DNA of 64,000 bases from Vampirovibrio sp. (GCA_050916035.1 CP050876.1:410372-474371); one strand, 5' to 3'; shown: positions 1 to 52,258, counted from the first letter of the stretch. Translations and numbers: made by a program. The notes: generated by a model not told the origin, from the sequence alone.

Positions 1-151
1 CAAATACTAAAAGAGAAAAGTCATTTAGAAAACACTGGGATTCTAAATATTCGTTTGTATAAGCTCTATTTATATCCACTTTTTCTAATCCCACGCATTA
101 ACAAGTTGTTAAGGGGACTCATCAAACATTTATTACTTATCATGGAATAAT

Positions 152-1084
152 TCACCTGTCACTGAATTCATAACCAAATTCTTCTTTAAGACAGAGCCTT
201 ATTTTTTCTTTTTGATACACGTTTTTAATCCCTGCCTGTTCTTCCCAAACCGAATGGCCTGAATGACCTTGCCAACAATGTTGATAATAATGGTCCCTCA
301 GATCTTGAGAAGGAAGAGGATCTGTAAAGGCATAACCCAATTTCATGATTTTATCAAACCAATACGCAGCGGTATCTCCCCCATCTTCATGATTACCAAA
401 ATAGCAAGCATGCTGTTTCGCTATTTTTTTTGCAGTCTTTACATTGATCAAACAACACCATTCATTGATACGGCAAGCACGCTCATAATATTTTGGAAAC
501 GCCCCTTTATCACTGGTGGTCAAAGGCCAATACGCATGTGGACGTGTGCCTTCTACTATTTTAGTTGGATGACAGATCATTGAATCTTTACAAATCCAAC
601 ATTGACCCAAATCACCGACTATTGCATAATTTGAGTCACTTTCAATGGTGTCATAATAGAGCTTTAAAATATTTTTTGTAAATTTAATATCGTCATGAAT
701 CACAAAAAGATACTTTTTATCCGTTTCCATTATAGCCCATTGATATCTAATATCGGCCTCCTCAAATAAAGCGTTCTTAAGATAAGCATACACAAAACGG
801 CGCCAAGATTTAAAGGACTTAGGCTTAAAACGCTTGGTCATCAATTGTGTGCCCCAGCCACCTGGTTTTTTATTCACACGCAATTTTAATTGAATAGGCG
901 CCAAACACTCATGTAAGTGAGGATCTATATAATACGCCATCGTCCCATCGTTAGAGCAGTCGTCATTTATATATATCGTATCTATTAAATGTCCACAGGC
1001 TTGCTTTAACGAAAATAAAGTATAAATTAGGGACTCTGGTTTTTTATAGGATTGTATGGCCACATCTACTTTACTTGTCATCAT
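152..1084 (-). CDS. glycosyltransferase family 2 (GT-A fold)
   Basis: The N-terminus 'VDVAIQSYKKPESL...YINDDCSNDGT' matches the GT2 signature, and there is a DxD-like 'VIHDDI'. It lies in the low-GC glycan cluster with other sugar-modifying genes. Confidence 0.6.
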   Translation of the reverse strand: MMTSKVDVAIQSYKKPESLIYTLFSLKQACGHLIDTIYINDDCSNDGTMAYYIDPHLHECLAPIQLKLRVNKKPGGWGTQLMTKRFKPKSFKSWRRFVYAYLKNALFEEADIRYQWAIMETDKKYLFVIHDDIKFTKNILKLYYDTIESDSNYAIVGDLGQCWICKDSMICHPTKIVEGTRPHAYWPLTTSDKGAFPKYYERACRINEWCCLINVKTAKKIAKQHACYFGNHEDGGDTAAYWFDKIMKLGYAFTDPLPSQDLRDHYYQHCWQGHSGHSVWEEQAGIKNVYQKEKIRLCLKEEFGYEFSDR

Positions 1085-1096
1085 TTGGTCCTTCTT

Positions 1097-2602
1097 TTAC
1101 GGGATCTTAAAAAACGCTTTGCACCGTTGGCGGAATGTTTTACTGGGCAATATAGAGATTATGCAGCGTAGTAAAGCGCTTTGACGCGATGATCGAATTT
1201 GATCTTGAGGCGTTTGCATCTTGCACACAAAAATTTCTAAGGCGGTGGGTTTTCGCTTTCTTTGTATCTTAATACGCTGTAAACGATGATTCGAGGGAAA
1301 CTGTTGATGACAGGACACTAAGTGCTTTGAAAAACCCTCAGGCAAGTGGTCACGCTCTAAAATATCGTATAAAGTCTGTGACACCGTAGGCGTATTAAGC
1401 GCTAAAACTGCTTTTTCAATCAGGGCTTCTGGCGTCTCACAAAAAATACCCGCTTCCTGAAAGGTATCCAATTCATTCAACGGCGTTTTCAACGTCAGAC
1501 AAGGAATATTGTATTTAGCAATGTCTAGTAAAGCGGTAAAAGAACTCATCGGAAAGCTATCCATGGCTAAATCCGCCAAACCCAAATACAGCTCTAGTTC
1601 ATTATGGGGAATTTCTCCAAGGCAAAATATTCTCCCCGAGGAAAGCGCCACTGTATTTTGCCAATGTTCATCCGTTTCACTAGGGCCAATCGCCAGTAAC
1701 ACCGCTTCAGGCACCCTATTTAAAATAGACTGCAGGGTAGTCATAAAATCGTAAGGAGCAAACGGTTTATATTTATAGGATGACGCCATGGTGAGCACCA
1801 CTTTAGCCTTCATAGAAATACCTAATCGCTTTTTCAAGGCAGTATTATGGTCCGTATGCTTCATCAAGGGATCAGGCTGTTCAAGGGGTAAGGGCAAAAG
1901 ACATTGCTTACGAATCCCTCGATGCCATTGATTAAATTCGGTAGAAAACGTTCTTAAATTCACCACTAAGTCTGAAATACTCGCCCCAAGCCAAAAAAGA
2001 TGATCCGCATGATTAAAAAACACCACGGGTCTTAAAAAATCTGCCGTCCCAAAAGCCAGCAAAGGCACCATATCATTCATGTGAACCTGTAAAATAACGG
2101 CTTCATAAGCACTTGCCTGTTTTCTTAAGGCCAACGCTTTTTCTATAAAAGGAGAAGCAGGCGGTAAAATAGTCAGGCTCCCGCCACAGTTCGTGACCAG
2201 TTTTTCTAACAAAGGGGGTAAATTCAGAGGGTCCTTCAAATCAGTGATTAACACCGAATGCTTAGAATGAGGCGGTGCATTTTTGATCCAACGCTCCAGC
2301 ACACGCGTATGCCCCCCTGTTAGATAAGGCGTCGTTAAAACATGTAAAAAAGTATTGGGTTTATACGAATTTTCCTGCTCAATCGTATGCCTTTGAGCCA
2401 CTTGTAACAAGGCTTCTTCCAGTTCAGGAAAAACCATGCGATTACACATATTCATCGTACAAAAAGTGGCAAGTTCGGCCAAGGCTTGTAATTTTTCCAC
2501 TTCTACTTTCTTCTTTAAGGCCCGTTTCAATTGGCGCAAAATATGTTTTTCATTATTTAGAATATAAGTTTCTATGGCTTGATCAGACATCACATTAGAC
2601 AT
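1097..2602 (-). CDS. glycosyltransferase, GT4-like (GT-B fold) with N- and C-terminal extensions
   Basis: '[20 protein letters not shown]' resembles the GT4 N-terminal motif. A C-terminal '[23 protein letters not shown]...ALLD' resembles the GT4 nucleotide-sugar binding region. Context is the glycan cluster. Confidence 0.4.
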
Positions 2603-3689
2603 ACGTATTCACCGCCTCCACCACACGAGACACTTGAGCCTTGCTTAAAACGGGTGATATCGGGAGGCTCAACACCTCTCGGTGGATTTGCTCCGTCACA
2701 GGGAAAGACGCCCTATTCCATTCAGGATACGCCTGTTGCTGATGAGGAGGAATCGGATAATGCACCAAGGTTTGAATCCCCTGCGCCTTTAAATAGTCTT
2801 GTAAGGCGTATCGATGGGCCGTTCGCACCACAAACAGGTGAAACACATGGGCCTGCCAATCTTGAACGGTGGGCAACACAATAGCGGGATTCTGAATCTC
2901 ACACAAGTAACGTTTCGCCACGTAACGACGCGCGTCATTACTGGCATCTAAATCAGGGAGCTTGACCTGAAGCACCGCCGCTTGCAGTTCATCCAATCGA
3001 GAGTTCACCCCCTGATAACGATTTTCATATTTTACGGCAGAGCCATAATTTCGCAGTATCGCTATTTTTTCGGCCAAGGCGTCGTCATGGGTCGTCACCG
3101 CGCCACCATCTCCTAATGCTCCCAAATTCTTACCTGGGTAGAAACTAAAACCTGTCGCATCCCCCAGAGACCCCACCCGTTCCTTACGATAAGGATAAAA
3201 CGCACCATGGGCTTGCGCTGCATCTTCAATCACTTTTAAGTTGTATTGTTTCGCCACCTGCAGGATAGGGCCCATATCAACCGCTTGACCATATAAATGC
3301 ACCACCATAATTGCCTTGGTTTTTGGCGTAATCGCCGATTCTATTTGAGCGCTGTTGATATTATACGTGTGCAAACAGGGTTCCACCAAAACGGGGGTCA
3401 ACTGATTTTGTGAAATCGCTAAAATACTGGCAATATAGGTATTGGCGGGGACAATCACTTCACTGCCTGCTTCAAACGCATAGGCCTTAAGAATCAGACT
3501 TAACGCATCCAAACCATTGGCCACCCCAATGCAATGTTTAACGCCGCAATAATCAGAAAAAGCCTGAGCGAATCGTTCATTTTCCTGCCCAAGGAGATAC
3601 CAGCCTGAGTCTAGCACACGCTGAAAAGCCTCGTCCAACGCAGGACGATACACCGCATTCATCGCCTTTAAATCAAGAAAAGGAATCAT
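2595..3689 (-). CDS. DegT/DnrJ/EryC1/StrS-family PLP-dependent sugar aminotransferase (FdtB/WecE-like)
   Basis: Typical family N-terminus '[40 protein letters not shown]...'. It sits near FdtA-like and FdtC-like genes. Confidence 0.8.
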
Positions 3690-4597
3690 AACACCAACCT
3701 CTTCAAATCCGAAGTCAATTTAGACGCGCCTGCTTCAGTAAGATGATCAAAATCACCAAAATCTTCCCACTCGAACTGTGAATCTGAAAAATAGTTGCAT
3801 AGGGTAATATCTTGCCCCTCAATCATTGAGTACAAAGAAGCAAATAATTCAGATTCATGAGGTAAACAATCCAAATAATCTCTTCTTGCAGGAGGAATTA
3901 AAATAAACACGTCCATCCCTTCCTGCTGGGCCATGTCAATAAAACGAATCAAGTAAGAAAGAACATCATTTTTTCTCTCATTTTCCCTTAAATGTGTTTT
4001 TACTCTCTCTTTGACAGGAGCATTTTGATCAAAATAACGATTTAACCGAACATAGCCTTGTGTATTAACCCTGTCTTTTACCAAAGGAAATCGCTTTTTA
4101 CTTAAGGATTTATACACTTTATAAAGCCCCCCTAGGTTCTGGTCATCAGGCAGTTTATAGTCAATATCATATAAGCATTTAAAATAATTACACACCTCAT
4201 AATCAATTGTTTTTTGGACTTCTAAGCCTGAGGAAAAAACAGAATACACTAAAATAATTCGTTTAAGTTTAAGCGACTTTTTCAATTTATTCATTAAATG
4301 AAAAGAATAATACAGGTCTTGGCTGGTTGAACACAAATTAAAACTATTGGGTGAAAATTGAGGCGTATCAATACCATAAGCCCCATGAGAAGAACCTAAA
4401 ATCAAAGTATCGATCGACGACATATTTTGTTTCAGCATCCAAAATTTTTGGCTTATTTCATGTTCATAAAAACCATGAGACAGAGATTTACCACGAAAAA
4501 AATCAATCCATTTTTGTATCAAAGGGAGTTTCATTCTAATTCCTTTTACGAAAAGAGCAGGACGGTCAATATCAACTGCACTGAATAAAGATCTCAA
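3686..4597 (-). CDS. hypothetical protein, possible SGNH/DltD-like hydrolase (glycan O-acyl modification?)
   Basis: 303-aa ORF at about 33% GC. '[11 protein letters not shown]' resembles the GDS(L) block I and the C-terminal 'DFDHLTEAG' resembles the Asp/His block V. The real start may be the M at 4534. Similarity is only motif-level. Confidence 0.3.
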
Positions 4598-5273
4598 AAA
4601 GAGATATTAAATATGTTTGGTACGATATTAAAATCTTCTTTTTGTTTCGTCAGCCCTAATATTTCGAACACTTTTTCGTCAATAACTGCGTCTGCATAAA
4701 TATATTCCGTTCCTTCTTTTATGGTATTGGTCGCATTTCTAAACTTTTTAAGTAAATTTCTTCGTACCCAACTCATGTGATGGCAAACCACAACATCGTA
4801 CATAAATATATAAGGATGTTTAATGTGATTTAAACACCGTGTAGGATCAACTACAATAGGAGCATTGCTTTGGGTACACAATCTACGTTGAGAGGTTAAT
4901 TGTGAGATAAAAGGAATGGCGTAGTTGGCAATTTCTTTTTGTTGATATTGGGGAGTATTAACGTAATTTCTATGAAAACAAAAGGTGGTATCATAATTGT
5001 GTTTTAAGATTTTTTCTTTGGCCCACTGTATTTCTTCCGCGTGATAGAACTCATCTACATCCATCACAAGTAAATAATTACATTTTGCCTTTCGTACGGC
5101 TTGAACGCCTATATTTCTTTTGAAAAGTTCATTATCTATTGATGTTTTTAAAGCATCAGGTTCAAAGAAAATAATTTCATCAATAAGCTTTTTTTCTTTT
5201 AATGAAAGTAGCAAGTCATAAAGACAAGCCTCTGCAGGTTCTCCATGCCAAGAAGTGCTTTGGTAGACGACAT
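4594..5273 (-). pseudogene. C-terminal fragment of a glycosyltransferase-like gene split by the IS element
   Basis: The track ORF 4594..5289 has its apparent 'MSTLP' start codon inside the IS terminal repeat (ATGTCGACA). There is no native start before Met76. The fragment contains the DxD-like 'YLLVMDVDEF'. It is in frame with the 6118..6350 fragment once the IS and one TA are removed. Confidence 0.5.
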
Positions 5274-5289
5274 TAGGTAGTGTCGACAT

Positions 5290-5736
5290 TTACTTAAGCC
5301 ATAAACAAATAGAAGCAAGATGAACAAAAGACAAATAAGCCACATCTAATTTATCGTAACGGGTTGCCATTCGCCTGAAGTTTTTAAGGTCTTTAAACAA
5401 GTTTTCTACCAAGTGGCGAGCCTTGTAAAGGAAGTAATCGACTTGACGAGGAGCCACCGCATTGCTTTTATTAGGGATGACCACTTCAGCCCCCATGAGG
5501 TGAATCGCCTCAAATATTTGTTCTGAAACATAGCCCTTGTCCGCCAAAACCGCCGTGGCTTCAAGCCCTTTTAACAAAGGGATGGCTTGGGTTGAGTCGG
5601 AAACCTGCCCTGCGGTGACGATAAAGCGAACGGGGTTGCCGTGGCTGTCACAAACGGCGTGAAGCTTGCTCGTATAGCCCCCTGACGATCGTCCTAACGC
5701 TTGTTTTCCGGCACTTTTTTTGCCCCTGCTGAACAC
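5290..5736 (-). CDS. IS transposase OrfB (DDE catalytic part, presumably fused to OrfA by -1 frameshift)
   Basis: 148-aa product identical to ORF 48028..48474. It overlaps orfA by 43 nt in the -1 frame, which is the typical IS427-group organisation. Confidence 0.8.
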   Translation of the reverse strand: MFSRGKKSAGKQALGRSSGGYTSKLHAVCDSHGNPVRFIVTAGQVSDSTQAIPLLKGLEATAVLADKGYVSEQIFEAIHLMGAEVVIPNKSNAVAPRQVDYFLYKARHLVENLFKDLKNFRRMATRYDKLDVAYLSFVHLASICLWLK

Positions 5737-6050
5737 TGGTGGGCGCGAATAATCGTCGAATCAATCATAAGCCATTCGGTATCTGCCGATGTGGCAAGGG
5801 TGTTGAAAATCATTTGCCAAATGCCTTGTTTCGCCCAACGAATGAAGCGCTTGTGAACACTGCTCCACTTGCCGTAATAATAGGGAAGCGACCTCCATCT
5901 TCCCCCGTTTCGCCCCATCCATAATACCGCTTCTACAAAAAGACGGTTGTTTTCGGCAGTGCGTCCTCTATGATGCGACTGACCAGGTAGAGCCTCTTTT
6001 ATCTGATTCCATTGGGCTTTAGACAACTCGTATTGAATATAATCGTTCAT
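5694..6050 (-). CDS. IS transposase OrfA (HTH part)
   Basis: 118-aa product 'MNDYIQYELSKAQWNQIKEALPGQSHHRGRTAENNRLFVEAV...' is identical to ORF 47714..48070. It ends at an A7G slippery run (T-run 5715..5721 on the plus strand). Confidence 0.8.
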   Translation of the reverse strand: MNDYIQYELSKAQWNQIKEALPGQSHHRGRTAENNRLFVEAVLWMGRNGGRWRSLPYYYGKWSSVHKRFIRWAKQGIWQMIFNTLATSADTEWLMIDSTIIRAHQCSAGAKKVPENKR

Positions 6051-6117
6051 AATAAATCCCTCAAAACAACTAGATCTTGGATTTATTATATCATTATTTA
6101 TATGTCGACACTACCTA

Positions 6118-6350
6118 ATATAATGGGCAGAAGATCTCACCGATTGCAAAGAGGCTTCTAACAGTTCCTCTCCGTCAAATAAGCTATAGGTAATCCCTAG
6201 TTTAAAGGTCTCTATCTTTTTAGACAAGGAGAAGAGCTTGATTGACTCTCTTGCATTTCTACGTTTTTTTCTACTGAATGAAACGCAATCAAGATATTGT
6301 GATAGGGTTTTCACCCTTTTTCCCGCTTGAATCATAATCTGTTTTAACAT
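6118..6350 (-). pseudogene. N-terminal fragment of the same IS-split glycosyltransferase-like gene
   Basis: The stop codon of track ORF 6111..6350 (CTA 6111..6113 on the plus strand) lies inside the IS terminal repeat. '...ITYSLFDGEELLEASLQSV' resembles a GT2-type N-terminal motif. The reading frame continues into 5275 after 5276..6117 is removed. Confidence 0.45.
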
Positions 6351-6353
6351 GAG

Positions 6354-6806
6354 CTAATGAATACTCCTTGCGGGATTACCGATAACCGTTGTATGCGCGG
6401 GGACGTCCTTCGTAACCACGGCACCCGCTCCCACCATGGCATGTTGACCAATGGTCACCCCAGGTAAAATCGTGGCATTCGCCCCGATTGAGGCCCCTGC
6501 TTCAATGGTAATGCCTTGCAGCAGAAAGTCTCGATTCCCCGATTGAGGGTACTTGTCATTACAAAAGGTGACATTCGGACCAATAAAGACATCATCCGCA
6601 ATACGAAGCCCATCCCACAACTGCACCCCATTTTTAACCGTGACCCGATTACCCAGTACCACCTTGTTTTCAATCAAGACATGGGCGCAAATGTTACAGT
6701 CTTCCCCAATTTGAGCCTCTGGCAAAATAACACAAAACTGCCAAATACGTGTTCCTTTCCCAATATGGGGGCTTTGTACATCTGACAGAGGATGAATAAA
6801 CGTCAT
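6354..6806 (-). CDS. hexapeptide-repeat sugar N-acetyltransferase (FdtC/WxcM C-domain-like)
   Basis: Left-handed beta-helix hexapeptide repeats are visible ('[49 protein letters not shown]'). It overlaps the FdtA-like gene by 4 bp. Confidence 0.7.
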
Positions 6807-7207
6807 GAGCCAGACACCTCTTTCAAAAAGTCGTCGTAGTCGCGGATGTATTCTTCAGGGTGGTAATGAGCGCTGGCCAAGACCAACAGCACGCAGCCTT
6901 GCGAAAAATCAAACATCTCTCTCCATAACATTTTACCCACATACAAGCCTTTTTCAGGGGTATTGAGTTCAAAAACCCCGACGATTTGGCCGTCATCCAC
7001 CTTGACCTTACAAGACCCATTAACACACACCAAAACTTGTTCTAAATCTCTATGCGCGTGGGAGCCGCGGGGGACGTCTCGCTTGGTGTCGTAAATATAG
7101 TAAATGCGTTGAATGTCAAACGGAATGTTTTTTTGAGATTCTAAAGAAACCAAGCTCCCGCGAAGATCACCAAAAGCCTTAAAGTCCAATAAATGGTAGT
7201 TAGGCAT
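6803..7207 (-). CDS. FdtA/WxcM-like cupin, NDP-4-keto-6-deoxyhexose 3,4-ketoisomerase
   Basis: 134-aa product with '[35 protein letters not shown]...', matching the FdtA family size and His motif. Confidence 0.6.
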
Positions 7208-7300
7208 AGTGAAAAATCCTTTACATCCAACATGACTTTAATTATACAGGTAAGACTTCTTTTGAACAGGCTGACCTAGTTCGTGATATAAAATACTCGA

Positions 7301-8389
7301 TTACTCTATTTCTCGATGCACAGGGTAGCCTTCTGTCAGCAAGAGCTTTTCCTTCTGAGCGTCTTTCAAATCCTCGTGAATCATTTCCTTTACCAAGTCC
7401 GCCAATTGGTACTGAGGCGTCCACCCCAGTGCGTGACGCGCTTTAGACGCGTCCCCCAATAATAAATCCACCTCCGTAGGACGAAAATACGTAGGGTCCA
7501 CTTCAATCACAACCTTACCTGTGGCGGTATCCACCCCTTTTTCATCCACGCCTTGTCCTTGCCAAACCAAGTGAATACCCAGTTCGGCAAAGGCCATTTG
7601 GCAAAAATCACGAATTGTGGTGGTCACCCCTGTGGCTAAAACATAATCTTCTGGGCGCTCCTGCTGCAAAACGCGCCACATGCCTTCCACATAATCTTTG
7701 GCATGGCCCCAATCTCGTTGAGCGTCTAAATTGCCCAAGTATAGTTTTTCTTCCAAGCCTAATTTAATGCGTACCGCCGCACGGGTAACTTTACGCGTGA
7801 CGAAGGTTTCACCTCGGCGTGGGCTTTCATGATTAAATAGAATGCCATTACACGCAAACATATTATAACTTTCACGGTAGTTAATGGTAATCCAATACGC
7901 ATAGATTTTGGCACAGGCGTAAGGCGAACGCGGATAAAAAGGCGTGCTTTCTCGCTGAGGGGTTTCCTGCACCAAGCCAAACAATTCCGACGTTGAGGCT
8001 TGATAAAACTTGGTCTTGGCTTCTAAGCCTAAAATACGAAGGGCTTCCAGCAACCTTAAGGTGCCTAAGCCGTCCACATTGGCGGTGTATTCAGGGCAAT
8101 CAAAGGAGACTTTTACATGAGATTGTGCCGCCAAGTTGTAGATTTCATCAGGCTGAATGCGCTGTACCAATCGAATCAAATTGGTGCTGTCGGTTAAATC
8201 ACCATAATGTAATTTAAAGCGAAGGTCTTCGTCGTGTGGATCCTGAAAGAGGTGATCAATCCGACTGGTATTTAAAGAAGACGCTCGACGCTTAATGCCG
8301 TGGACTTCATAGCCCTTGGCGAGTAAAAGTTCTGCCAAATAACTACCATCTTGCCCGGTTATCCCTGTAATTAAAGCTACTTTTTTCAT
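7301..8389 (-). CDS. gmd: GDP-mannose 4,6-dehydratase
   Basis: '[32 protein letters not shown]...' is the canonical Gmd N-terminus. It has the full-length SDR-fold dehydratase signature '[10 protein letters not shown]'. Confidence 0.9.
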
Positions 8390-8462
8390 CGATTCAAATC
8401 CTTCATATACTTTGATACGGCTTTATAAAACGCAAGAATTCCCTTGGCTCAGCAATAAAAGA

Positions 8463-9638
8463 CTAAGCATTTAAAACCTGAACCAAGTAATCAATCTTGT
8501 CTTTAATATCAAATTGATGGTTGCCCACAAAAAATCCTTGTTGATCAATGTAGTCTGCTTGACGCAAGTCTCCTGAAATTTCATAATCAAAGTAAGACAA
8601 CACCTTGTTTTTCACAAAATTCCCCGCCACAATAGGACGACAATCAATCTGATGCGCCTCTAGTTTTTGAACCAATTCAGATCGCTTTAAAGTGGATTCA
8701 GGGCGAATCATCAACGCAAAGCCAAACCAAGAACTTTGGCCTATTTCTTGTTGAATCATCAAATCAGGGTGATCTTGAAAACGTTCTTGAAAATATCGCG
8801 CGTTTTCTCGACGAATCTTCAAAAACTCAGGGAGCTTCTGTAATTGTGTTAATCCTGTAGCGCCTGACATTTCTAAAGGGCGTACATTATAGCCCGGTAA
8901 AATAAAACGAAAGGCCTCTTCAAAGGTCTGCGCTGATTTTTGACAAAGGGTATTGTCGTCGCCAAGGTGTCGCGTCCACCCATGAGAGCGTAAGCAGACC
9001 AAGATGTCTCTCAAATGTTCATCATCCGTCACAATGACCCCACCTTCCATCGTGGAAATATGGTGGGAGAAAAATCCAGAAAACGTCCCCATTAATCCAA
9101 AGGTGCCTGCTTGCTTGCCTTTAAATGTGGCCCCCAGCGATTCACAGTTATCTTCCAGTAAAATGATATTTTTATCTTGAATCAAGGCCTGAAGACGATC
9201 AAAATCGTTGGGATTTCCTAATAAATTAACGGCCAAAATTGCTTTGGTCTTAGGCGTAATGGCGGCTTCTAAGGCGTCTAAATCAAAATTGAGCGTCTCT
9301 GTCGACACATCCACAAATTTAAGCTTTAATCCATATTGATATAAGGGATAATACGTGGTAGGCCACGACACCGCAGGGACAATGACTTCATCTCCGCGTT
9401 GAAGCTTTGGACTGTTGGTATAAAACAAGCTGGCAATCATTAATAAATTAGCGCTTGACCCTGAATTCACCATCACCGCATAACGAGACCCCACATACGC
9501 GGCAAACGCACGTTCAAATTCAAAAACCTTGGCGCCCATAGTCGTTTGATGCAAGTCTGCCAATTTTTTAATGGCGTCTACCTCTTGCGCGTCCCACGAA
9601 CTTTCAGCAAGCGGATACCGTGTTTTTGTAATAGTCAT
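8463..9638 (-). CDS. colD: GDP-4-keto-6-deoxy-D-mannose 3-dehydratase-like (ColD-type member of DegT family)
   Basis: DegT-fold protein of 391 aa. The active-site region reads 'FFSHHISTMEGG', with histidines where aminotransferases carry the PLP-binding lysine. That substitution is the known hallmark of ColD. It sits between gmd and an Fcl-like gene. Confidence 0.6.
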   Translation of the reverse strand: MTITKTRYPLAESSWDAQEVDAIKKLADLHQTTMGAKVFEFERAFAAYVGSRYAVMVNSGSSANLLMIASLFYTNSPKLQRGDEVIVPAVSWPTTYYPLYQYGLKLKFVDVSTETLNFDLDALEAAITPKTKAILAVNLLGNPNDFDRLQALIQDKNIILLEDNCESLGATFKGKQAGTFGLMGTFSGFFSHHISTMEGGVIVTDDEHLRDILVCLRSHGWTRHLGDDNTLCQKSAQTFEEAFRFILPGYNVRPLEMSGATGLTQLQKLPEFLKIRRENARYFQERFQDHPDLMIQQEIGQSSWFGFALMIRPESTLKRSELVQKLEAHQIDCRPIVAGNFVKNKVLSYFDYEISGDLRQADYIDQQGFFVGNHQFDIKDKIDYLVQVLNA

Positions 9639-10539
9639 AGGTCTGTCGAACTCCTTCTTCTAATGAAATTTCAGGGATAAAACCAAAGGCGCTTTGCTTT
9701 TGTACGTCTACCAATTTTTGAGCCATCCCCGAAGGTTTGCTTAAATCATGAACAAAAGTACCCTGAAAACCCAGTACCTTGGCAATCGTTTCATAGTAGT
9801 CATTAATCGTATAGTCGTAGCCTAAGCCCACATTCATTAAATCAGGCAAGTCTTCAAAACGAGGGATTGCCATTTCAATAAAACGCGCCAAATCTTCAGT
9901 GTACATAAATTCTCGACGTGCCAAGCCGTCCCCCCAAATCTGAACCTCAGGGAGCTCTTGGGTAATCGCCTGATCTATTTTTTTAATCACGGCAGGAATC
10001 ATATGCGAATGCGCGTCTGAAAATTTATCATAGGGACCATACAAATTACAAGGAATCAATGTCTTATAGTGAAAGTGTGGATTTTCACGGCCAATATAGG
10101 TACATAAGCGAGCCACCGCACATTTGGCCAAGGCATATCCTTCATTGGTGGGTTCTAGTTCCCCTGTCAACACTTGAGACTCCACCAAAGGATTCGTCGC
10201 GTTTTTAGGGTACATACAACTAGAGCCCAAGTTCAGCAGATGCGGAACCCCCAGTGCTTGGGCAGATTTCACCAAATGAAAACCCATCATCATATTTTCA
10301 TATAAAAAAGCGGTGGGTTGAGCGATATTGGCTTGAATCCCTCCCACCTTTCCCGCACAGTGAATAATCAAGTCAGGCGCGTGAGTTGCCAAATAAAGGT
10401 GAACGCTAGAGGCGTTCAATAAGTCTAGCGCTGCTCTTGTGGGCGTTAGCAATTCAAAATGCATGGCCAAGCGCTTGACTAGCGTTCTGCCTACCATACC
10501 CGCCGCACCTGTAATTAAAATCTTTCGAATTTTAGGCAT
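9604..10539 (-). CDS. GDP-L-fucose synthase family epimerase/reductase (Fcl / ColC-like)
   Basis: 'MPKIRKILITGAAGMVGRTLVKRL...' carries the NAD(P)-binding GxxGxxG. The start is set at the ATG at 10539; the track ORF extends to 10635 through an alternative start. It is the last gene of the gmd-colD-like trio. Confidence 0.75.
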   Translation of the reverse strand: MPKIRKILITGAAGMVGRTLVKRLAMHFELLTPTRAALDLLNASSVHLYLATHAPDLIIHCAGKVGGIQANIAQPTAFLYENMMMGFHLVKSAQALGVPHLLNLGSSCMYPKNATNPLVESQVLTGELEPTNEGYALAKCAVARLCTYIGRENPHFHYKTLIPCNLYGPYDKFSDAHSHMIPAVIKKIDQAITQELPEVQIWGDGLARREFMYTEDLARFIEMAIPRFEDLPDLMNVGLGYDYTINDYYETIAKVLGFQGTFVHDLSKPSGMAQKLVDVQKQSAFGFIPEISLEEGVRQTYDYYKNTVSAC

Positions 10540-10694
10540 ATTTTCTGCTTCCCAAGCAACTGTACTCATCCCCTTAGAATAAAATAACACACTACTCTTC
10601 ACTAAATCAAGAAACCCCCTTCCCAAAGCCGCCAAAATAAAGACTTAAAACAGCACAATTGTGCGAATCCCTAATGAATTTATACAAAACACAC

Positions 10695-19327: not shown

Positions 19328-19550
19328 ACGTCAACGCAAAAATGCGAGGCTTCCGAGACATTTTGCGGACGTCGTGGCCGTAAATGATGCGAGGAGGTGG
19401 GGATTGAGGGGGGATTTTCAAGGGGGGACGAAGGGGAGGAGAAACGCAATGCGTCCTTCCCCGTCCCCCCTTGAACGGATTTAGAGGTGTCGGAGAACCT
19501 TTTTCCGTAAAAAGGTCTCTGACGGCACAAGCTAAAAATGCAGAGAAAAA
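19328..19550. repeat. structured intergenic repeat, copy A (related copy at 51785..52040)
   Basis: Shared blocks are GACGTCAACGCA, TTTTGCGGACG, a G-run/C-run hairpin (19417..19475) and a second hairpin GGTGTCGGAGAACCTTTTTCCGTAAAAAGGTCTCTGACGGCAC. The distal roughly 75 bp are near-identical between copies. Confidence 0.6.
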
Positions 19551-19560
19551 GGCCCTTGGA

Positions 19561-20790
19561 CTAAAGCCAAGCGTCACAAAGGTGCATTAAAAGCCCGCGC
19601 GCGATTTCATCCTTAGGCGCTTTAGCCAAAAAATGGGGGGCCTGTGTTTCATCGGTCCATAGTAGCGTCATTTCATTGTCAGGCTGATGAAAGGCAATAT
19701 CTTCGCGCCCAATGGCATTCACCGCCAAGGCATCCGCCCCCTTACGGCGTAGTTTTTCATACAGGGGGGTGTAATCTCCCGTTTCACTTTCCGCGGCAAA
19801 GCCCAAGACTTTTTGATGCGGTTGCTTCATGGCGCACGCTTCTTTTAAAATATCAGGGGTGATTTCTAAATCCAGCGTGTAATGAGCACAGGCTTCGCTT
19901 TTCTTAATTTTACCCGCTTGGGGAGATCGAGGTCTAAAATCACTGACGGCAGCCGCTTTTAAAAGCCAATCCTGCTGAGCAAACGCCTTTAAAACGGCGG
20001 TTCTCATTAAATCAACGCTGGGGCAATACTGCACCTGATACGGCCTACTTTCAAAAGCATCCAGAGGGGTGGCGCTGATCAGCGTGACGTCGGCTCCCAT
20101 GGCGTAGGCTTCATCTGCCAAGGCCCGTCCCATTTTTCCACTGGAGCGATTCGTCAGCACGCGTGCAGGGTCTAAGGCTTCTTGCGTGCCCCCTGCGGTG
20201 ACCAGTATTTTTTTCCCCACCAAGCGATGAGCCTGAGGATGCAAGGCTTTATACAAGGTCAGTAAAGTCCATGCATCAGGCGCCAAATGCCCTGACCCTG
20301 TTTCCCCACAAGCCAATAAGCCTTCAACAGGCGGCACCATAAACACATGAGGCAAGGCGCTTAACAGATCTAAATTGCGTTGTGTTAAGGGATGTTCCCA
20401 CATACGGCGATTCATGGCAGGGGCAATCACAATGGGCTTCGCATCAAAACACAGGGCCGTTGCGGTGAGTAAATCCCCCGTTAATCCTTGTGCCAGTTGA
20501 GCCAAACTATTCGCCGTAGCGGGGTAAATCAGGAGTGCATCCCCCCATTGCGCCAAACTAATATGTAGCGGTACGCCTGCTTCATCCACCGCGTGATGTT
20601 CCGCCGTCGCCTTTTTTTTACTGAGGCTCGACAAGGTTAAGGCGGTGATAAACTGAGGCGCTTCTTGGGAAAGAATGGGATGAACCGCTTCCGCTCCCAA
20701 TCGCTGAAGGGTGCGAATCAAATCCGCACTTTTATAGGCCGCAACACTTGCACAAACGCCTAAAACAATACGGTTACCGTGAAAAAACAT
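19561..20790 (-). CDS. coaBC: bifunctional phosphopantothenoylcysteine decarboxylase / phosphopantothenate-cysteine ligase
   Basis: An N-terminal flavoprotein domain ('RIVLGVCASVAAYKSADLIRTLQ') is followed by a CoaB domain. Length is 409 aa. Confidence 0.9.
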   Translation of the reverse strand: MFFHGNRIVLGVCASVAAYKSADLIRTLQRLGAEAVHPILSQEAPQFITALTLSSLSKKKATAEHHAVDEAGVPLHISLAQWGDALLIYPATANSLAQLAQGLTGDLLTATALCFDAKPIVIAPAMNRRMWEHPLTQRNLDLLSALPHVFMVPPVEGLLACGETGSGHLAPDAWTLLTLYKALHPQAHRLVGKKILVTAGGTQEALDPARVLTNRSSGKMGRALADEAYAMGADVTLISATPLDAFESRPYQVQYCPSVDLMRTAVLKAFAQQDWLLKAAAVSDFRPRSPQAGKIKKSEACAHYTLDLEITPDILKEACAMKQPHQKVLGFAAESETGDYTPLYEKLRRKGADALAVNAIGREDIAFHQPDNEMTLLWTDETQAPHFLAKAPKDEIARGLLMHLCDAWL

Positions 20791-45031: not shown

Positions 45032-46624
45032 ATGCCCAAAATTTTAGTGACCGATCAAATCCATGAAAATGCTGTCGCCATTTTGAGTCCCCTTTGTGAC
45101 GTAAAATATGTGGCCAATGTTCCTGCGGATGAGTTGGTGGCCACCTTAAAAGACTGTGATGGCGTCATGATTCGTAGTGCGTCCACCATCACGGCGGAGG
45201 TTTTACGCCAAGTCCCCCACTTGCAAATTATTGGCCGTGCAGGGGTCGGGGTAGACAATGTAGACTTAGCAGCGGCCAACCAACAAGGGGTCGTGGTGGT
45301 GAATTCTCCAGAAGGCAACACTGTTGCCGCGGCAGAACATACCATTGGTCTGATGTTTGCCTTGGCGCGTCACATTCCCCAAGGGGATGCCAGCCTCAAA
45401 GCAGGACGTTGGGACCGTAAATCACTCACCGGCATAGAACTGTTCAATAAAACCTTAGGCTTAATCGGCTTGGGGAAAATTGGATCCCGCGTCGCGAAAG
45501 TGGCCAAATCCGTCGGTATGAAAATCGTGGTGTACGATCCTTTCATCAGCAAAGACGTCGTAGAAGCATTGGGCGCTAGACATACCACGCAACTCACTGA
45601 TATTTGGAAGCATTCCGATTTCATCACCGTGCATGTGCCTAAAACAAAGGACACACTCAATTTACTCAACACGGAAACCCTAAAGCAATGTAAGGCGGGG
45701 GTTCGTATCATCAATTGTGCCCGCGGCGGCATCATCAACGAATCCGATCTCGCCGACGCGCTTCGCACGGGTCACGTGGCAGGCGCCGCTTTAGATGTAT
45801 ACCATGAAGAACCTTTAAATGTGGCAAGCCCTTTATTGGCCGAAGACTTAGCGGGAAAAGTGGTCCTTACTCCCCATTTAGGGGCTTCTACGGAAGAAGC
45901 CCAAGTCAATGTCGCTTTAGATGTGGCCGAACAATTACGAGACTTTTTTGCGACAGGGGCCTTACGCTCCGTGGTAAATTCCCCTCTCCTTCGATCAGAA
46001 GTCATGGATCCCATTCGTCCCTATTTACCCTTAGGCGAAGCCATGGGTCGCTTGGGGCGTCAATTGGCAACAGGGGGCATCACCCAAGTAGAACTCATCG
46101 CCAAAGGGAGCTTGGCAGAAGAAAACATTGCCCCTTTAAGTCTGGCGGTACTGAAGGGACTATTAAGTGTCAATCGTGAAGGGGTTAATTACATTAATGC
46201 CACGTCGCTTGCCAAAAGCATTGGCATCACCGTACAGGAAAGTAAATCCACCGCCAAAGGTAGCCTCCCTAATTTACTGACCATTATCCTCACCAATGAT
46301 CAAGGAATTAGGCTGAGTCTTTCTGGTACGGTAATGGCACCCGATGTGATTCGCATCGTGGATATTGAAGGGTTTAAAACCTCCTTAAAACCCACCGACT
46401 ACATGTTAATGGTGCCCCATGAAGACAAGCCTGGCATGATTGCACAAATTGGAACGATTCTAGGAAATGCAAACATTAATATTTCAGCTTTACAAGTGGG
46501 CAAAAGTGGAGACGGGGATAAAAGCATCATGCTATTTAACTTGGACAGCCCTGTTGAGCAGGAGGTGCTGAGCCAACTGGGGCAAGTAAAAGGCTGTTAT
46601 ACGGCCAAAGCGCTCAGCCTCTAA
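45032..46624 (+). CDS. serA: D-3-phosphoglycerate dehydrogenase (with C-terminal ASB/ACT domains)
   Basis: NAD-binding 'GLIGLGKIGSRVA' and the catalytic 'CARGGIINE...HLGASTEEAQ' are present. The 530-aa length indicates the long-form SerA. Confidence 0.9.
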   Translation: MPKILVTDQIHENAVAILSPLCDVKYVANVPADELVATLKDCDGVMIRSASTITAEVLRQVPHLQIIGRAGVGVDNVDLAAANQQGVVVVNSPEGNTVAAAEHTIGLMFALARHIPQGDASLKAGRWDRKSLTGIELFNKTLGLIGLGKIGSRVAKVAKSVGMKIVVYDPFISKDVVEALGARHTTQLTDIWKHSDFITVHVPKTKDTLNLLNTETLKQCKAGVRIINCARGGIINESDLADALRTGHVAGAALDVYHEEPLNVASPLLAEDLAGKVVLTPHLGASTEEAQVNVALDVAEQLRDFFATGALRSVVNSPLLRSEVMDPIRPYLPLGEAMGRLGRQLATGGITQVELIAKGSLAEENIAPLSLAVLKGLLSVNREGVNYINATSLAKSIGITVQESKSTAKGSLPNLLTIILTNDQGIRLSLSGTVMAPDVIRIVDIEGFKTSLKPTDYMLMVPHEDKPGMIAQIGTILGNANINISALQVGKSGDGDKSIMLFNLDSPVEQEVLSQLGQVKGCYTAKALSL

Positions 46625-46757
46625 AATTGTTAAAAAAATATTATATTGCCTTTTTAAGGCTTGACTCTTTGTTCGCAAAATGATTTAGTGGTTCATGTGG
46701 ATTTCATCATGAGCTCCACCAATTTTATATGTAATGTAGATAAGGATCTTAATTTTT

Positions 46758-47300
46758 ATGTTGAAAAAGTTTTTGCCACTTTTGGCCATTGTTGCTCTAG
46801 CTACTGTGTCTTTGCCTGCTTTTGCGAATGACAGCGTACATCATGCTTCCTCTTCTCACTATACTTCATCTGAGTCTGGTATGGTGCATTCTGATATCGT
46901 AGGAACTGCTTTAAACAATCCTAATTTTTCTACCTTAGTGACTGCTTTAAAAGCAGCTGGATTGGTTGAAGCCTTACAGGGCCCTGGTCCTTTCACGGTA
47001 TTTGCTCCCACCAATGCTGCCTTTAACAAATTGCCCGCAGGTACTCTTGAAAGCCTTTTAAAGCCTGAAAACAAAGGTAAGCTTCAAGATATTTTAAAGT
47101 ACCATGTTATTCAAGGTAATGTAATGTCTACGGATATTAAATCAGGTACGGTCGCTGTAGGAAGCTTAGAAGGCAAATCTTTGGCTGTTCAAAGAACCAA
47201 GGGTAATGCCGTTAAAATCAATGAATCCTTGGTCACTATGCCTGATGTAAAAACATCCAACGGTACCATTCACGCGATTGACACGGTTTTACTCCCTTAG
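46758..47300 (+). CDS. secreted fasciclin (FAS1) domain protein
   Basis: A signal peptide is present ('MLKKFLPLLAIVALATVSLPAFA'). FAS1 motifs 'TVFAPTNAAFNKLPAGTLESLL' and 'ILKYHVIQGNV' are present. Confidence 0.8.
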   Translation: MLKKFLPLLAIVALATVSLPAFANDSVHHASSSHYTSSESGMVHSDIVGTALNNPNFSTLVTALKAAGLVEALQGPGPFTVFAPTNAAFNKLPAGTLESLLKPENKGKLQDILKYHVIQGNVMSTDIKSGTVAVGSLEGKSLAVQRTKGNAVKINESLVTMPDVKTSNGTIHAIDTVLLP

Positions 47301-47323
47301 TCAAATCACGTCATACGTTTTAA

Positions 47324-47355
47324 AAGACTCCTTGAACAGTCAGGGAGTCTTTTGC
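47324..47355 (+). terminator. terminator of the fasciclin gene
   Basis: AAGACTCC-N12-GGAGTCTT followed by TTGC. Confidence 0.5.
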
Positions 47356-47523
47356 TAAACAGGTCGGCCTATTTGATCATTTGTAACGATTTGTAAAAAT
47401 ATGCGTCCATGGTAAAAAATAGACTTGTTTTATTGACAACTTGTTGTATTCTTTAGATACTCTGATGCAATGTTTTTTCTATTATTGTAAAGCAAATGCT
47501 TTTATAATATTAAAGAATTACAC

Positions 47524-47551
47524 CCCCTTCTCCTCGAGAAGGGGTTTTTTT
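47524..47551 (+). terminator. strong Rho-independent terminator in the fasciclin-IS intergenic region (ends a roughly 80-nt candidate sRNA)
   Basis: Perfect 9-bp stem CCCCTTCTC-CTC-GAGAAGGGG followed by seven T residues. A TTGACA-N17-GATACT promoter-like site lies about 75 nt upstream (47445..47473). Confidence 0.55.
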
Positions 47552-47713
47552 ATACGTCTGGTGTTTTAAATACGACCCCCCTTTATCCTTCCGTTGTGGG
47601 ATTCCGAATTAATATATCTGCAGGACGCCACATTTTCTCGATATACTAGGTAGTGTCGACATATAAATAATGATATAATAAATCCAAGATCTAGTTGTTT
47701 TGAGGGATTTATT

Positions 47714-48070
47714 ATGAACGATTATATTCAATACGAGTTGTCTAAAGCCCAATGGAATCAGATAAAAGAGGCTCTACCTGGTCAGTCGCATCATAGAGGA
47801 CGCACTGCCGAAAACAACCGTCTTTTTGTAGAAGCAGTATTATGGATGGGGCGAAACGGGGGAAGATGGAGGTCGCTTCCCTATTATTACGGCAAGTGGA
47901 GCAGTGTTCACAAGCGCTTCATTCGTTGGGCGAAACAAGGCATTTGGCAAATGATTTTCAACACCCTTGCCACATCGGCAGATACCGAATGGCTTATGAT
48001 TGATTCGACGATTATTCGCGCCCACCAGTGTTCAGCAGGGGCAAAAAAAGTGCCGGAAAACAAGCGTTAG
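47714..48070 (+). CDS. IS transposase OrfA
   Basis: Identical to the 5694..6050 product. Confidence 0.8.
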   Translation: MNDYIQYELSKAQWNQIKEALPGQSHHRGRTAENNRLFVEAVLWMGRNGGRWRSLPYYYGKWSSVHKRFIRWAKQGIWQMIFNTLATSADTEWLMIDSTIIRAHQCSAGAKKVPENKR

Positions 48071-48474
48071 GACGATCGTCAGGGGGCTATACGAGCAAGC
48101 TTCACGCCGTTTGTGACAGCCACGGCAACCCCGTTCGCTTTATCGTCACCGCAGGGCAGGTTTCCGACTCAACCCAAGCCATCCCTTTGTTAAAAGGGCT
48201 TGAAGCCACGGCGGTTTTGGCGGACAAGGGCTATGTTTCAGAACAAATATTTGAGGCGATTCACCTCATGGGGGCTGAAGTGGTCATCCCTAATAAAAGC
48301 AATGCGGTGGCTCCTCGTCAAGTCGATTACTTCCTTTACAAGGCTCGCCACTTGGTAGAAAACTTGTTTAAAGACCTTAAAAACTTCAGGCGAATGGCAA
48401 CCCGTTACGATAAATTAGATGTGGCTTATTTGTCTTTTGTTCATCTTGCTTCTATTTGTTTATGGCTTAAGTAA
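48028..48474 (+). CDS. IS transposase OrfB (DDE), -1 frame relative to OrfA
   Basis: Identical to the 5290..5736 product. It overlaps the A7G slippery site. Confidence 0.8.
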   Translation: MFSRGKKSAGKQALGRSSGGYTSKLHAVCDSHGNPVRFIVTAGQVSDSTQAIPLLKGLEATAVLADKGYVSEQIFEAIHLMGAEVVIPNKSNAVAPRQVDYFLYKARHLVENLFKDLKNFRRMATRYDKLDVAYLSFVHLASICLWLK

Positions 48475-48598
48475 ATGTCGACACTACCTAAGTTTAACGT
48501 TAAAACATGTAACAATCTATTCAAGCATTTTAAAAAAGTAACCGACCCATTTAAAGACCTTCATTTCCATCACAAACCCTTTCCAGAGGAGCTTCATC

Positions 48599-49027
48599 AT
48601 GTTGAATCGACACAAGCAAGACGCCTTTACCCTCATCGAACTTGGGGTGATTATTGCTATTATTGGCGTAATGTCCGCCGTCGCCGTCACACAAATGATG
48701 GATTTGACAGGCAATGCCGAAGCAGCCGTTTTAGAAGATTATCTACAAAAATTAAATTCGGGATCTGCTCAGTTTTTGGCTTATAGGGGCCGTCGTCCAA
48801 CGGGCTTTGGTGAATTTATGGCCGCCACCAACGCCGATTTAGACCCCGACACGGGCCTTGTGGTGCCCTTACTGTATAGCAAAAGTGGAGATGAAATGTG
48901 CGGAACCACGGCCCCTGGGGATGATGCCGAAACCCTCACCTGTGATGGTGAAGGCTTGGCCAACCGTAAAGCCGTGTATACCCTTGACAACGGCATGGTC
49001 ACCATGGTGTTAACCAACGTCGATTAA
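48599..49027 (+). CDS. prepilin-type N-terminal cleavage/methylation domain protein (type IV pilin / pseudopilin-like), orphan
   Basis: 'MLNRHKQDAFTLIELGVIIAIIGVMSAVAV' is a class III leader plus the FTLIE N-methylation motif and a hydrophobic helix. It has Ala rather than Gly at position -1. Two Cys in the C-terminal half could form a disulfide loop. Confidence 0.65.
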   Translation: MLNRHKQDAFTLIELGVIIAIIGVMSAVAVTQMMDLTGNAEAAVLEDYLQKLNSGSAQFLAYRGRRPTGFGEFMAATNADLDPDTGLVVPLLYSKSGDEMCGTTAPGDDAETLTCDGEGLANRKAVYTLDNGMVTMVLTNVD

Positions 49028-51784: not shown

Positions 51785-52040
51785 ACGTCAACGCACTAAA
51801 TCCGAGCGGGTGAGCGAATGGCGAATCCCCTGCGGATTTTGCGGACGGCCGACGTGAGGGGGTGGAGCAAGCGAAAAGGATGAGAAGGGGGGGAGGATTT
51901 TCAAGGAGGGGGGCAAGAGAAGGAGAGCCGCAACAATTTCCTTTTCTTTCCCCCCCCTCCTTGAACGGATTTAGAGGTGTCAGAGACCTTTTTCCGTGAA
52001 AAGGTCTCTGACGTCACCAGCTCAAAATGAAGCGAGGAAT
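51785..52040. repeat. structured intergenic repeat, copy B (related to 19328..19550)
   Basis: Same block order as copy A. Hairpin 1 is TTCAAGGAGGGGGG...CCCCCCCTCCTTGAA (51900..51965). Hairpin 2 is GGTGTCAGAGACCTTTTTCCGTGAAAAGGTCTCTGACGTCACC (51976..52018). Confidence 0.6.
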
Positions 52041-52258
52041 CCAAAAATAACACCAAGTGACGATTTTAGCTAAAAGACAAAACACTACACGTTTGCTTCT
52101 ACAAGTAACCTAAATTGTTACAATTCATCACCCCTCAACGGCCTCAACGCGTAGGGTCTTCTTGAACTCTTGAGATTTGACCCAATACGCCTTCTTTTTA
52201 TGCTAAGCTAGCAAGCGTCACACCCCTAATCCCTACTAATCTGAGTCTTATTTTTCTT

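Follow-up and report, generated by a model that had tools for sequence, protein, structure and literature searches.

Insertion sequence copies in the window

The DNA analysed here, a 64,000-nt stretch of a Vampirovibrio sp. genome (hereafter the window), contains two copies of one insertion sequence (IS). Their 840-bp cores lie at 5276..6115, with the transposase on the minus strand, and at 47649..48488, with the transposase on the plus strand, so that copies 1 and 2 form an 850-nt inverted repeat with arms 41.5 kb apart. The initial annotation had described this inverted arrangement, the terminal repeat of 14 bp on each copy and a TA on each flank, and all three were recovered: the repeat GGTAGTGTCGACAT is perfect (14/14 bp) at the ends of both copies, or 16/17 if extended, the window holds exactly four occurrences of it where 0.19 would be expected by chance, and TA is present at both ends of copy 1 and of copy 2. 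That the copies are indistinguishable, as had also been stated, was not borne out. They are identical at 839 of 840 positions. The one SNP, at IS position 188, reads G in copy 1 (window 5928) and A in copy 2 (window 47836) on the transposase strand and is synonymous, in an Ala codon of orfA. The features of the two copies are as follows.

5276..6115, minus strand: IS copy 1, IS5 family, 840 bp, within a glycosyltransferase gene and in the same direction as the gene, 839/840 identical to copy 2
5274..5275: duplicated target TA of copy 1, next to the C-terminal gene half; a single TA is present here in the relative L001
6116..6117: duplicated target TA of copy 1, next to the N-terminal gene half, from the comparison with L001
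6102..6115, minus strand: left terminal inverted repeat of copy 1 (GGTAGTGTCGACAT), the source of the premature stop of the N-terminal fragment
5276..5289, plus strand: right terminal inverted repeat of copy 1, whose outward ATG (5289..5287) begins the 231-aa ORF of the C-terminal fragment
5694..6050, minus strand: orfA of copy 1, 118 aa, DUF4096, with the first catalytic Asp (LMIDST)
5290..5736, minus strand: orfB frame of copy 1, with the second Asp (LADKGY) and the YREK motif Y-KA-R-HLV-E-NLFKDL-K
5715..5721, minus strand: slippery A7 run in copy 1, read as T7 on the plus strand and the candidate -1 shift site for fusion of orfA and orfB
47649..48488, plus strand: IS copy 2, 840 bp, intergenic
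47647..47648: duplicated target TA at the left end of copy 2; a single TA is present here in the relative L013
48489..48490: duplicated target TA at the right end of copy 2, from the comparison with L013
47714..48070, plus strand: orfA of copy 2
48028..48474, plus strand: orfB frame of copy 2
48043..48050, plus strand: A7G slippery site of copy 2

The stop codon of orfB abuts the outward ATG of the right repeat in the same frame (TAAATG; 5287-5292 and 48472-48477), and every insertion therefore makes a potential restart ORF that runs into the flanking DNA. At copy 1 this ORF is the 231-aa glycosyltransferase fragment, and the corresponding ORF of copy 2 has 103 aa (48475..48786) and overlaps the 5' end of the pilin-like gene described below. 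In the terminal repeats (47649-47662, 48475-48488 and the repeats of copy 1) the palindrome GTCGAC gives an outward-facing, -35-like TCGACA, and a promoter scan flagged 47659..47632 on the minus strand (TCGACA, 16-nt spacer, GAAAAT); hybrid promoters directed outward from the terminal repeats are possible.

Transposase and placement in the IS5 family

The orfA gene (118 aa) overlaps orfB, which is in the -1 frame, at the A7G slippery site that had been noted before (48043..48050 in copy 2; 5715..5721, as T7, in copy 1). Fusion of OrfA and OrfB by a -1 shift on A7G would give a 253-aa IS5-family DDE transposase. This fused product matched NCBIfam NF033580 (transpos_IS5_3) end to end, with a score of 280.3 bits (cut-off 110) that spans positions 2-258 of the 258-position profile, and the Pfam families DDE_Tnp_1 (82 bits) and DUF4096 (79.5 bits), which upholds the earlier assignment to the IS5 family. 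The catalytic residues D, D and E were found in the translation (LMIDST, LADKGY and Y-KA-R-HLV-E-NLFKDL-K), the last of them in the Y-(2)-R-(3)-E-(6)-K signature as defined in the IS4/IS5 literature. The first Asp is located in orfA, the second Asp and the YREK signature in orfB; a full active site would therefore exist only on the fused product, and the overlap points to frameshifting as the way in which it is made. No significant stimulatory RNA structure was detected 3' of the A7G site (z = 0.49). Plasmid-borne IS5-family transposases about 50% identical to the product likewise aligned in two pieces, and the best plasmid matches were of mixed origin, with Komagataeibacter and Acetobacter elements among them at about 50% identity.

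Assignment to groups within IS5 is normally made by ISfinder clustering, and the ISfinder definition of the IS427 group gives a target duplication of 2-4 bp and ends starting with GG or GA. From its sequence traits, the element appears to resemble the IS427 group and IS1301: traits of the IS427 group are its length of 840 bp (range 800-1000), the two ORFs with a frameshift and the 2-bp duplication (2-4). ISCaa13, a member of the IS427 group, is alike in its length of 860 bp, its 253-aa transposase and its two ORFs with a frameshift (PMC3196728 table), but it is listed with a +1 shift instead of the -1 shift of the Vampirovibrionia element (PMC3196728). The IS1031 group, a near neighbour, differs in that its members usually have a single ORF and a 3-bp TNA duplication (PMC2516522, PMC3196728).

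The surface-glycan cluster and the split glycosyltransferase gene

Copy 1 is located in a cluster of co-directional genes, where it divides one gene into two parts.

152..10635, minus strand: co-directional surface-glycan (O-antigen-like) cluster
6118..6350, minus strand: N-terminal part of the split GT-A glycosyltransferase gene, codons 1-78
4594..5275, minus strand: C-terminal part of the same gene, codons 79-304 and the stop, with DVD at residues 150-152

Besides the split gene, the cluster encodes an epimerase, two DegT aminotransferases, Gmd, FdtA and a hexapeptide acetyltransferase, together with three proteins that have no family assignment above threshold. Start and stop codons overlap between the cluster genes. 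The pathway is an O-antigen-like or S-layer-glycan-like one, and copy 1 possibly exerts a polar effect on the four downstream genes. The G+C content of the cluster (window 1-10600) is 0.38-0.445, compared with typically 0.44-0.51 in most of the remaining window; such a lower value is commonly seen in surface-polysaccharide loci that vary or are exchanged horizontally.

Removal of 5276..6117 (842 bp, the IS and one TA) restored a reading frame of 304 aa that reads ...SSAHYI/NVVYQSTSW... across the junction (slash) and includes VMDVDEF, in agreement with the initial annotation; the frame is broken if both TAs are kept after removal of the IS. The earlier reading that the IS supplies the ATG ('MSTLP') of ORF 4594..5289 and the stop of ORF 6111..6350 was also correct, as both codons lie inside the IS repeats. 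Through a database search with the rebuilt protein, we found an intact 304-aa protein with 96% identity over 100% of the length and 44 further, more distant full-length homologues. All 45 are uninterrupted and aligned end to end, and the homology check that had been proposed for the rebuilt protein thus identifies the two halves as one gene. The insertion junction AHYI/NVVYQ falls within the conserved motif (V/A)DYINVVYQ, in which Y77 does not vary among 15 aligned sequences and V80 is conserved to 90% or more in each of the two alignments.

The product had been called glycosyltransferase-like, and this description was supported by structure prediction. An AlphaFold2 model built from a 46-sequence alignment reached a pLDDT of 87.7 and a pTM of 0.86, and a Foldseek search with it returned SunS, SpsA, TarP and TarS at probability 1.0 with E-values from 2.6e-7; the top structural matches (SunS, SpsA, ThuS, TarP, TarS and WrtF) are all GT-A glycosyltransferases. 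The DxD motif D150-V-D152 directly follows the core strand 145-149, and D150 is invariant and D152 nearly invariant. SunS, SpsA, TarP and TarS share the predicted fold and a DxD after a core beta-strand with the protein of the split gene, although sequence identity to them is only 9-18% and TM-scores are 0.3-0.5. With Pfam PF00535 (GT2) the rebuilt protein scored below the gathering threshold (19.1 versus 23.3 bits, residues 136-213 only), a precomputed Pfam domain was present in 0 of the 45 family members, and a PDB profile search with the family returned only GmaR at a non-significant E of 0.77. In GmaR (GT2), the segment NEEEML...VDEIIIV resembles FDGEELLE...DYINVV in the N-terminal part of the split-gene protein. 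Taken from the modelled fold and the DxD motif, the rebuilt protein is predicted to be a GT-A-fold glycosyltransferase of putative activity.

The family of the split gene (P0001-P0045) has no Pfam or NCBIfam model and carries the motifs FDGEELLE, DYINVVYQ, MDVDEFY, VDPTR and HHMSxVR. One homologue adjoins a GT11 fucosyltransferase gene and a radical SAM gene.

The insertion point, at codon 78/79, falls in the predicted strand 77-82, which is beta-2 of the nucleotide-binding core. Because the 231-aa remnant is without the first beta-alpha-beta unit, copy 1 has, on the model, most likely produced a null allele for the transfer step.

Copy 2 and the pilin-like gene

Copy 2 was inserted in an intergenic region between the following two features.

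47524..47544, plus strand: terminator-like hairpin, 3' of a fasciclin-domain gene (46758..47300) and 5' of the insertion point of copy 2
48599..49027, plus strand: pilin-like (PulG-like pseudopilin) gene, in the same direction as the transposase

The distance from the end of copy 2 to the pilin-like gene is 110 bp, just as first annotated for a prepilin gene, and copy 2 may alter the transcription of this gene. In relatives, the homologue is annotated as a PulG-like pseudopilin. The protein itself has KQDA/FTLIEL, with Ala replacing the usual Gly before the conserved Phe, and its score against N_methyl (19.7 bits) is just under the threshold of 21.2. Homologues are common, with 49-98% identity, and all organism names attached to them are Vampirovibrionales or Vampirovibrio sp. 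The contig with the 98%-identical pilin (L011) includes only 37 bp upstream of the gene and ends short of the insertion point, and a homologue at 66% identity is located in a different neighbourhood.

Empty sites in relatives

Both insertion sites were found empty in related genomes. The contig that encodes the 96%-identical intact protein (L001) has the same upstream acetyltransferase gene and is 96.6% identical at the DNA level; at the site of copy 1 it reads CCCATTATAT-TA-ATGTCGTC, an unoccupied site whose flanks are joined through one TA. The occupied junction of copy 1 was defined as CCCATTATATTA followed directly by GGTAGTGTCGACAT, and the corresponding empty form as CCCATTATAT-TA-ATGTCGTCTACC. 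For copy 2, contig L013 is 96.1% identical over window 45438..47648 and then passes straight into the right flank as TTATAC-TA-AGCTTAACGTTAAAACATG. This contig spans serA through the fasciclin gene and continues as TTATAC-TA-AGCTTAACGTTAAAACATGTAACAATCT, that is, left flank, single TA and right flank. The terminal repeats and the TA duplication were thereby confirmed against the empty sites of relatives for both copies. The single TA at the empty sites indicates that both insertions are recent, independent and simple transpositions.

Between the rebuilt gene and the intact gene of L001, dN/dS was 0.14 and dS was 0.117, and zero stops or frameshifts were found in either gene half, from which the gene was under purifying selection until recently. 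The claims of a recent insertion and of no decay in either half therefore stand, the former on the empty single-TA site in the 96.6% relative together with the dN/dS value. Since the empty sites come from relatives about 4% diverged, they represent the ancestral state and not revertants. The exact proteins of the strain (Gmd, the 231-aa C-terminal fragment and the pilin) gave no match in the collections searched, and neither a 21-mer of the glycosyltransferase flank, common to the occupied and empty alleles, nor a 30-mer of the right IS end had any match (0 each) in JGI metagenome contigs.

Gene order between the two copies

The 41.5-kb interval between the copies contains rpsB, tsf, fusA, yidC, coaBC, pheT, tmk, serA and a korAB-like pair (2-oxoacid:ferredoxin oxidoreductase), and so includes all the genes that the initial annotation had placed there (rpsB, tsf, fusA, serA and the korAB-like pair). 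GC skew is negative throughout both IS boundaries, without a break. Relatives without the IS have the inner and outer flank of each site joined and in the same orientation, which makes the 41.5 kb native here and its order ancestral.

Bracketing of a segment by two copies of one IS is also the structure of a composite transposon, in which both copies and the DNA between them would have been inserted as one unit. The segment holds core housekeeping genes (rpsB through serA in the list above), and its inner and outer flanks are contiguous in relatives without the IS, so that this origin is contradicted by the empty-site contigs L001 and L013 and can practically be dismissed.

A fixed inversion of the 41.5 kb was likewise rejected, from the same two contigs and the GC skew. 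Inverted repeats of 840 bp with 99.9% identity suffice in principle for RecA-dependent inversion, and homologous recombination between the two copies, which have this length, identity and orientation, could flip the 41.5 kb between two orientations in the population. The inverted arrangement would then read ...CCCATTATATTA-IS-TAGTATATCGAGAAAATGTG, joining the N-terminal half of the glycosyltransferase gene to the reverse complement of the fasciclin side. However, the two glycosyltransferase halves flank copy 1 correctly, the fasciclin and pilin flanks are contiguous in L013, and the skew is unbroken at both boundaries; we consider such flipping quite improbable in this population.

Other copies of the element, target preference and host

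Among 185,579 representative genomes, the left-end 37-mer of the IS was found in one, a Vampirovibrionales MAG from Lake Mendota (JBIJBR01). This MAG has at least five copies on five contigs, of which one is full (98.7% identity, 11 substitutions) and four are at contig ends. Four of its five IS-bearing contigs end inside the IS, which marks the element as one of the main causes of assembly breaks in this lineage. Its contigs L003 and L005 (set L002-L006) have more divergent IS ends with 93-96% identity, and this divergence suggests an older sub-family. In L007, the 16 nt to the left of a full copy (positions 1-16) are IS-internal sequence, reversed and ending at TA; they would reflect either an IS inserted into another copy or a chimera of the assembly graph. 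A tblastx comparison of the IS flanks in the Vampirovibrionales MAG with the window showed nothing beyond the IS. Three other metagenome assemblies also contain the exact OrfA and OrfB products, on contigs of about 950 bp in which the repeat is collapsed. The copies in the window and on these three metagenome contigs differ by 0-3 substitutions, with 1-3 between the metagenome copies and those of the window.

Because the IS breaks short-read assemblies elsewhere, as seen in the contigs ending within it and in the collapsed contigs of about 950 bp, copy 1 might be suspected to be a repeat misplaced by the assembler. Against this, the junctions are base-exact, the TA is duplicated and the frame is restored exactly, none of which a misjoin would reproduce, and one SNP separates copy 1 from copy 2. 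An artefact is accordingly very unlikely.

TA was found at nine of ten independent junctions between IS and flank; the exception, with CA instead of TA, is the more divergent partial copy on L003. The TA is preceded by a pyrimidine in 8/8 cases and followed by a purine in 4/5, which gives a YTAR-like target.

For ribosomal protein S2 of the window, the named best matches (64-73% identity) are all from MAGs of Vampirovibrio, Vampirovibrionales, Melainabacteria or 'Cyanobacteria bacterium', and the best match overall has 92% identity. Judged by this protein, the host belongs to the Vampirovibrionia and lacks a closely related sequenced reference.

Origin of the two insertions

We consider it very probable that the two copies result from two recent, independent and simple transpositions of one active 840-bp IS5-family element in a Vampirovibrionia genome. 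A -1 shift on A7G would join OrfA, with the DNA-binding part and the first Asp, to OrfB, with the second Asp and the YREK/Glu, and the resulting transposase would insert the element at YTAR-like sites with duplication of the central TA. One such insertion would have entered codon 78/79 of the 304-aa GT-A-fold gene in the middle of the tightly packed surface-glycan operon, cutting the protein to 78 native residues and leaving the 231-aa remnant ORF; the other would have entered the intergenic region between the terminator and the pilin-like gene. This is an ordinary kind of event, and its mechanism is not new.

An active IS5-family element is hereby described in Vampirovibrionia, which have been little studied and are known chiefly through MAGs, with ancestral empty sites for both copies, a defined YTAR/TA target and one step of the surface-glycan pathway putatively knocked out in one strain. 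Since the element fragments short-read assemblies of the lineage, it should be registered and masked, and the split gene should be annotated as a single interrupted gene rather than as two ORFs.

Comparison with known systems and the possibility of phase variation

The closest analogue of the element, compared by its traits, appears to be IS1301 of Neisseria meningitidis, an IS5-family element of 844 bp with 19-bp repeats, the target AYTAG and a TA duplication (PMC2686086, PMC2193550). Movement of IS1301 into and out of siaA causes phase variation of the capsule (PMC2686086, PMC2193550), and an intergenic insertion of IS1301 raises capsule expression (PMC2686086). The two elements are alike in size (844 versus 840 bp), in belonging to the IS5 family, in their short inverted repeats and in a Y-TA-R-like target with TA duplication. 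They are also found in parallel positions: IS1301 in a surface-polysaccharide gene and in an intergenic region, the Vampirovibrionia element in the glycosyltransferase gene (copy 1) and before the pilin-like gene (copy 2). They differ in the terminal repeats, which have 19 bp in IS1301 and 14 perfect bp (16/17) here, and in the host (Proteobacteria versus Vampirovibrionia), and reversible excision is documented for IS1301.

A second precedent is ISAba13 in itrA of Acinetobacter baumannii, where scarless excision restores a capsule glycosyltransferase at very low frequency (PMC9038732). There too, an IS lies inside a glycosyltransferase gene of a surface-glycan locus and identical target repeats permit scarless excision, but the duplication is 9 bp rather than 2 bp, and reversion was shown experimentally and is very rare (PMC9038732).

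At copy 1, likewise, the IS interrupts a gene for glycan biosynthesis and is so arranged that scarless excision would be possible, and the insertion could be read as a reversible switch, in which precise excision of the IS and one TA would let two surface-glycan states alternate. Removal of 842 bp does give the exact ancestral sequence and frame, the gene halves are undecayed, and IS1301 in siaA (PMC2686086, PMC2193550) and ISAba13 in itrA (PMC9038732) provide precedents. Yet intact halves indicate a young insertion, not a reversible one; no revertant or mixed allele was encountered, every empty site came from a relative about 4% diverged and shows the ancestral state, and the exact strain is absent from the collections searched. 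In addition, the direct repeat has just 2 bp, and scarless excision, where it was measured elsewhere, is very rare (PMC9038732). A switch at copy 1 is therefore unlikely, and the simple, recent insertion is preferred.

A broader proposal, to which we give slightly less credence than to the switch at copy 1, is an IS1301-like contingency device in Vampirovibrionia, which would turn the glycosyltransferase off by insertion and on again by scarless TA-to-TA excision, with copy 2 modulating the pilin-like gene. If true, this would mean phase-variable surface structures in Vampirovibrionia, a group without described cases. By analogy, glycan switching and IS-mediated inversion would be possible in principle, both of them as already-known mechanisms.

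Other features of the window

No tRNA genes and no Rfam families at gathering threshold were detected in the whole 64-kb window (1-64000). An intergenic repeat of about 130 nt was present in two copies (19420-19580 and 51910-52070) that are 83% identical and include the hairpin ACCTTTTTCCGT(A/G)AAAAGGT. This repeat had no Rfam match and was absent from the retrieved loci; candidates for its nature are a small repeat element, a terminator module and an sRNA.
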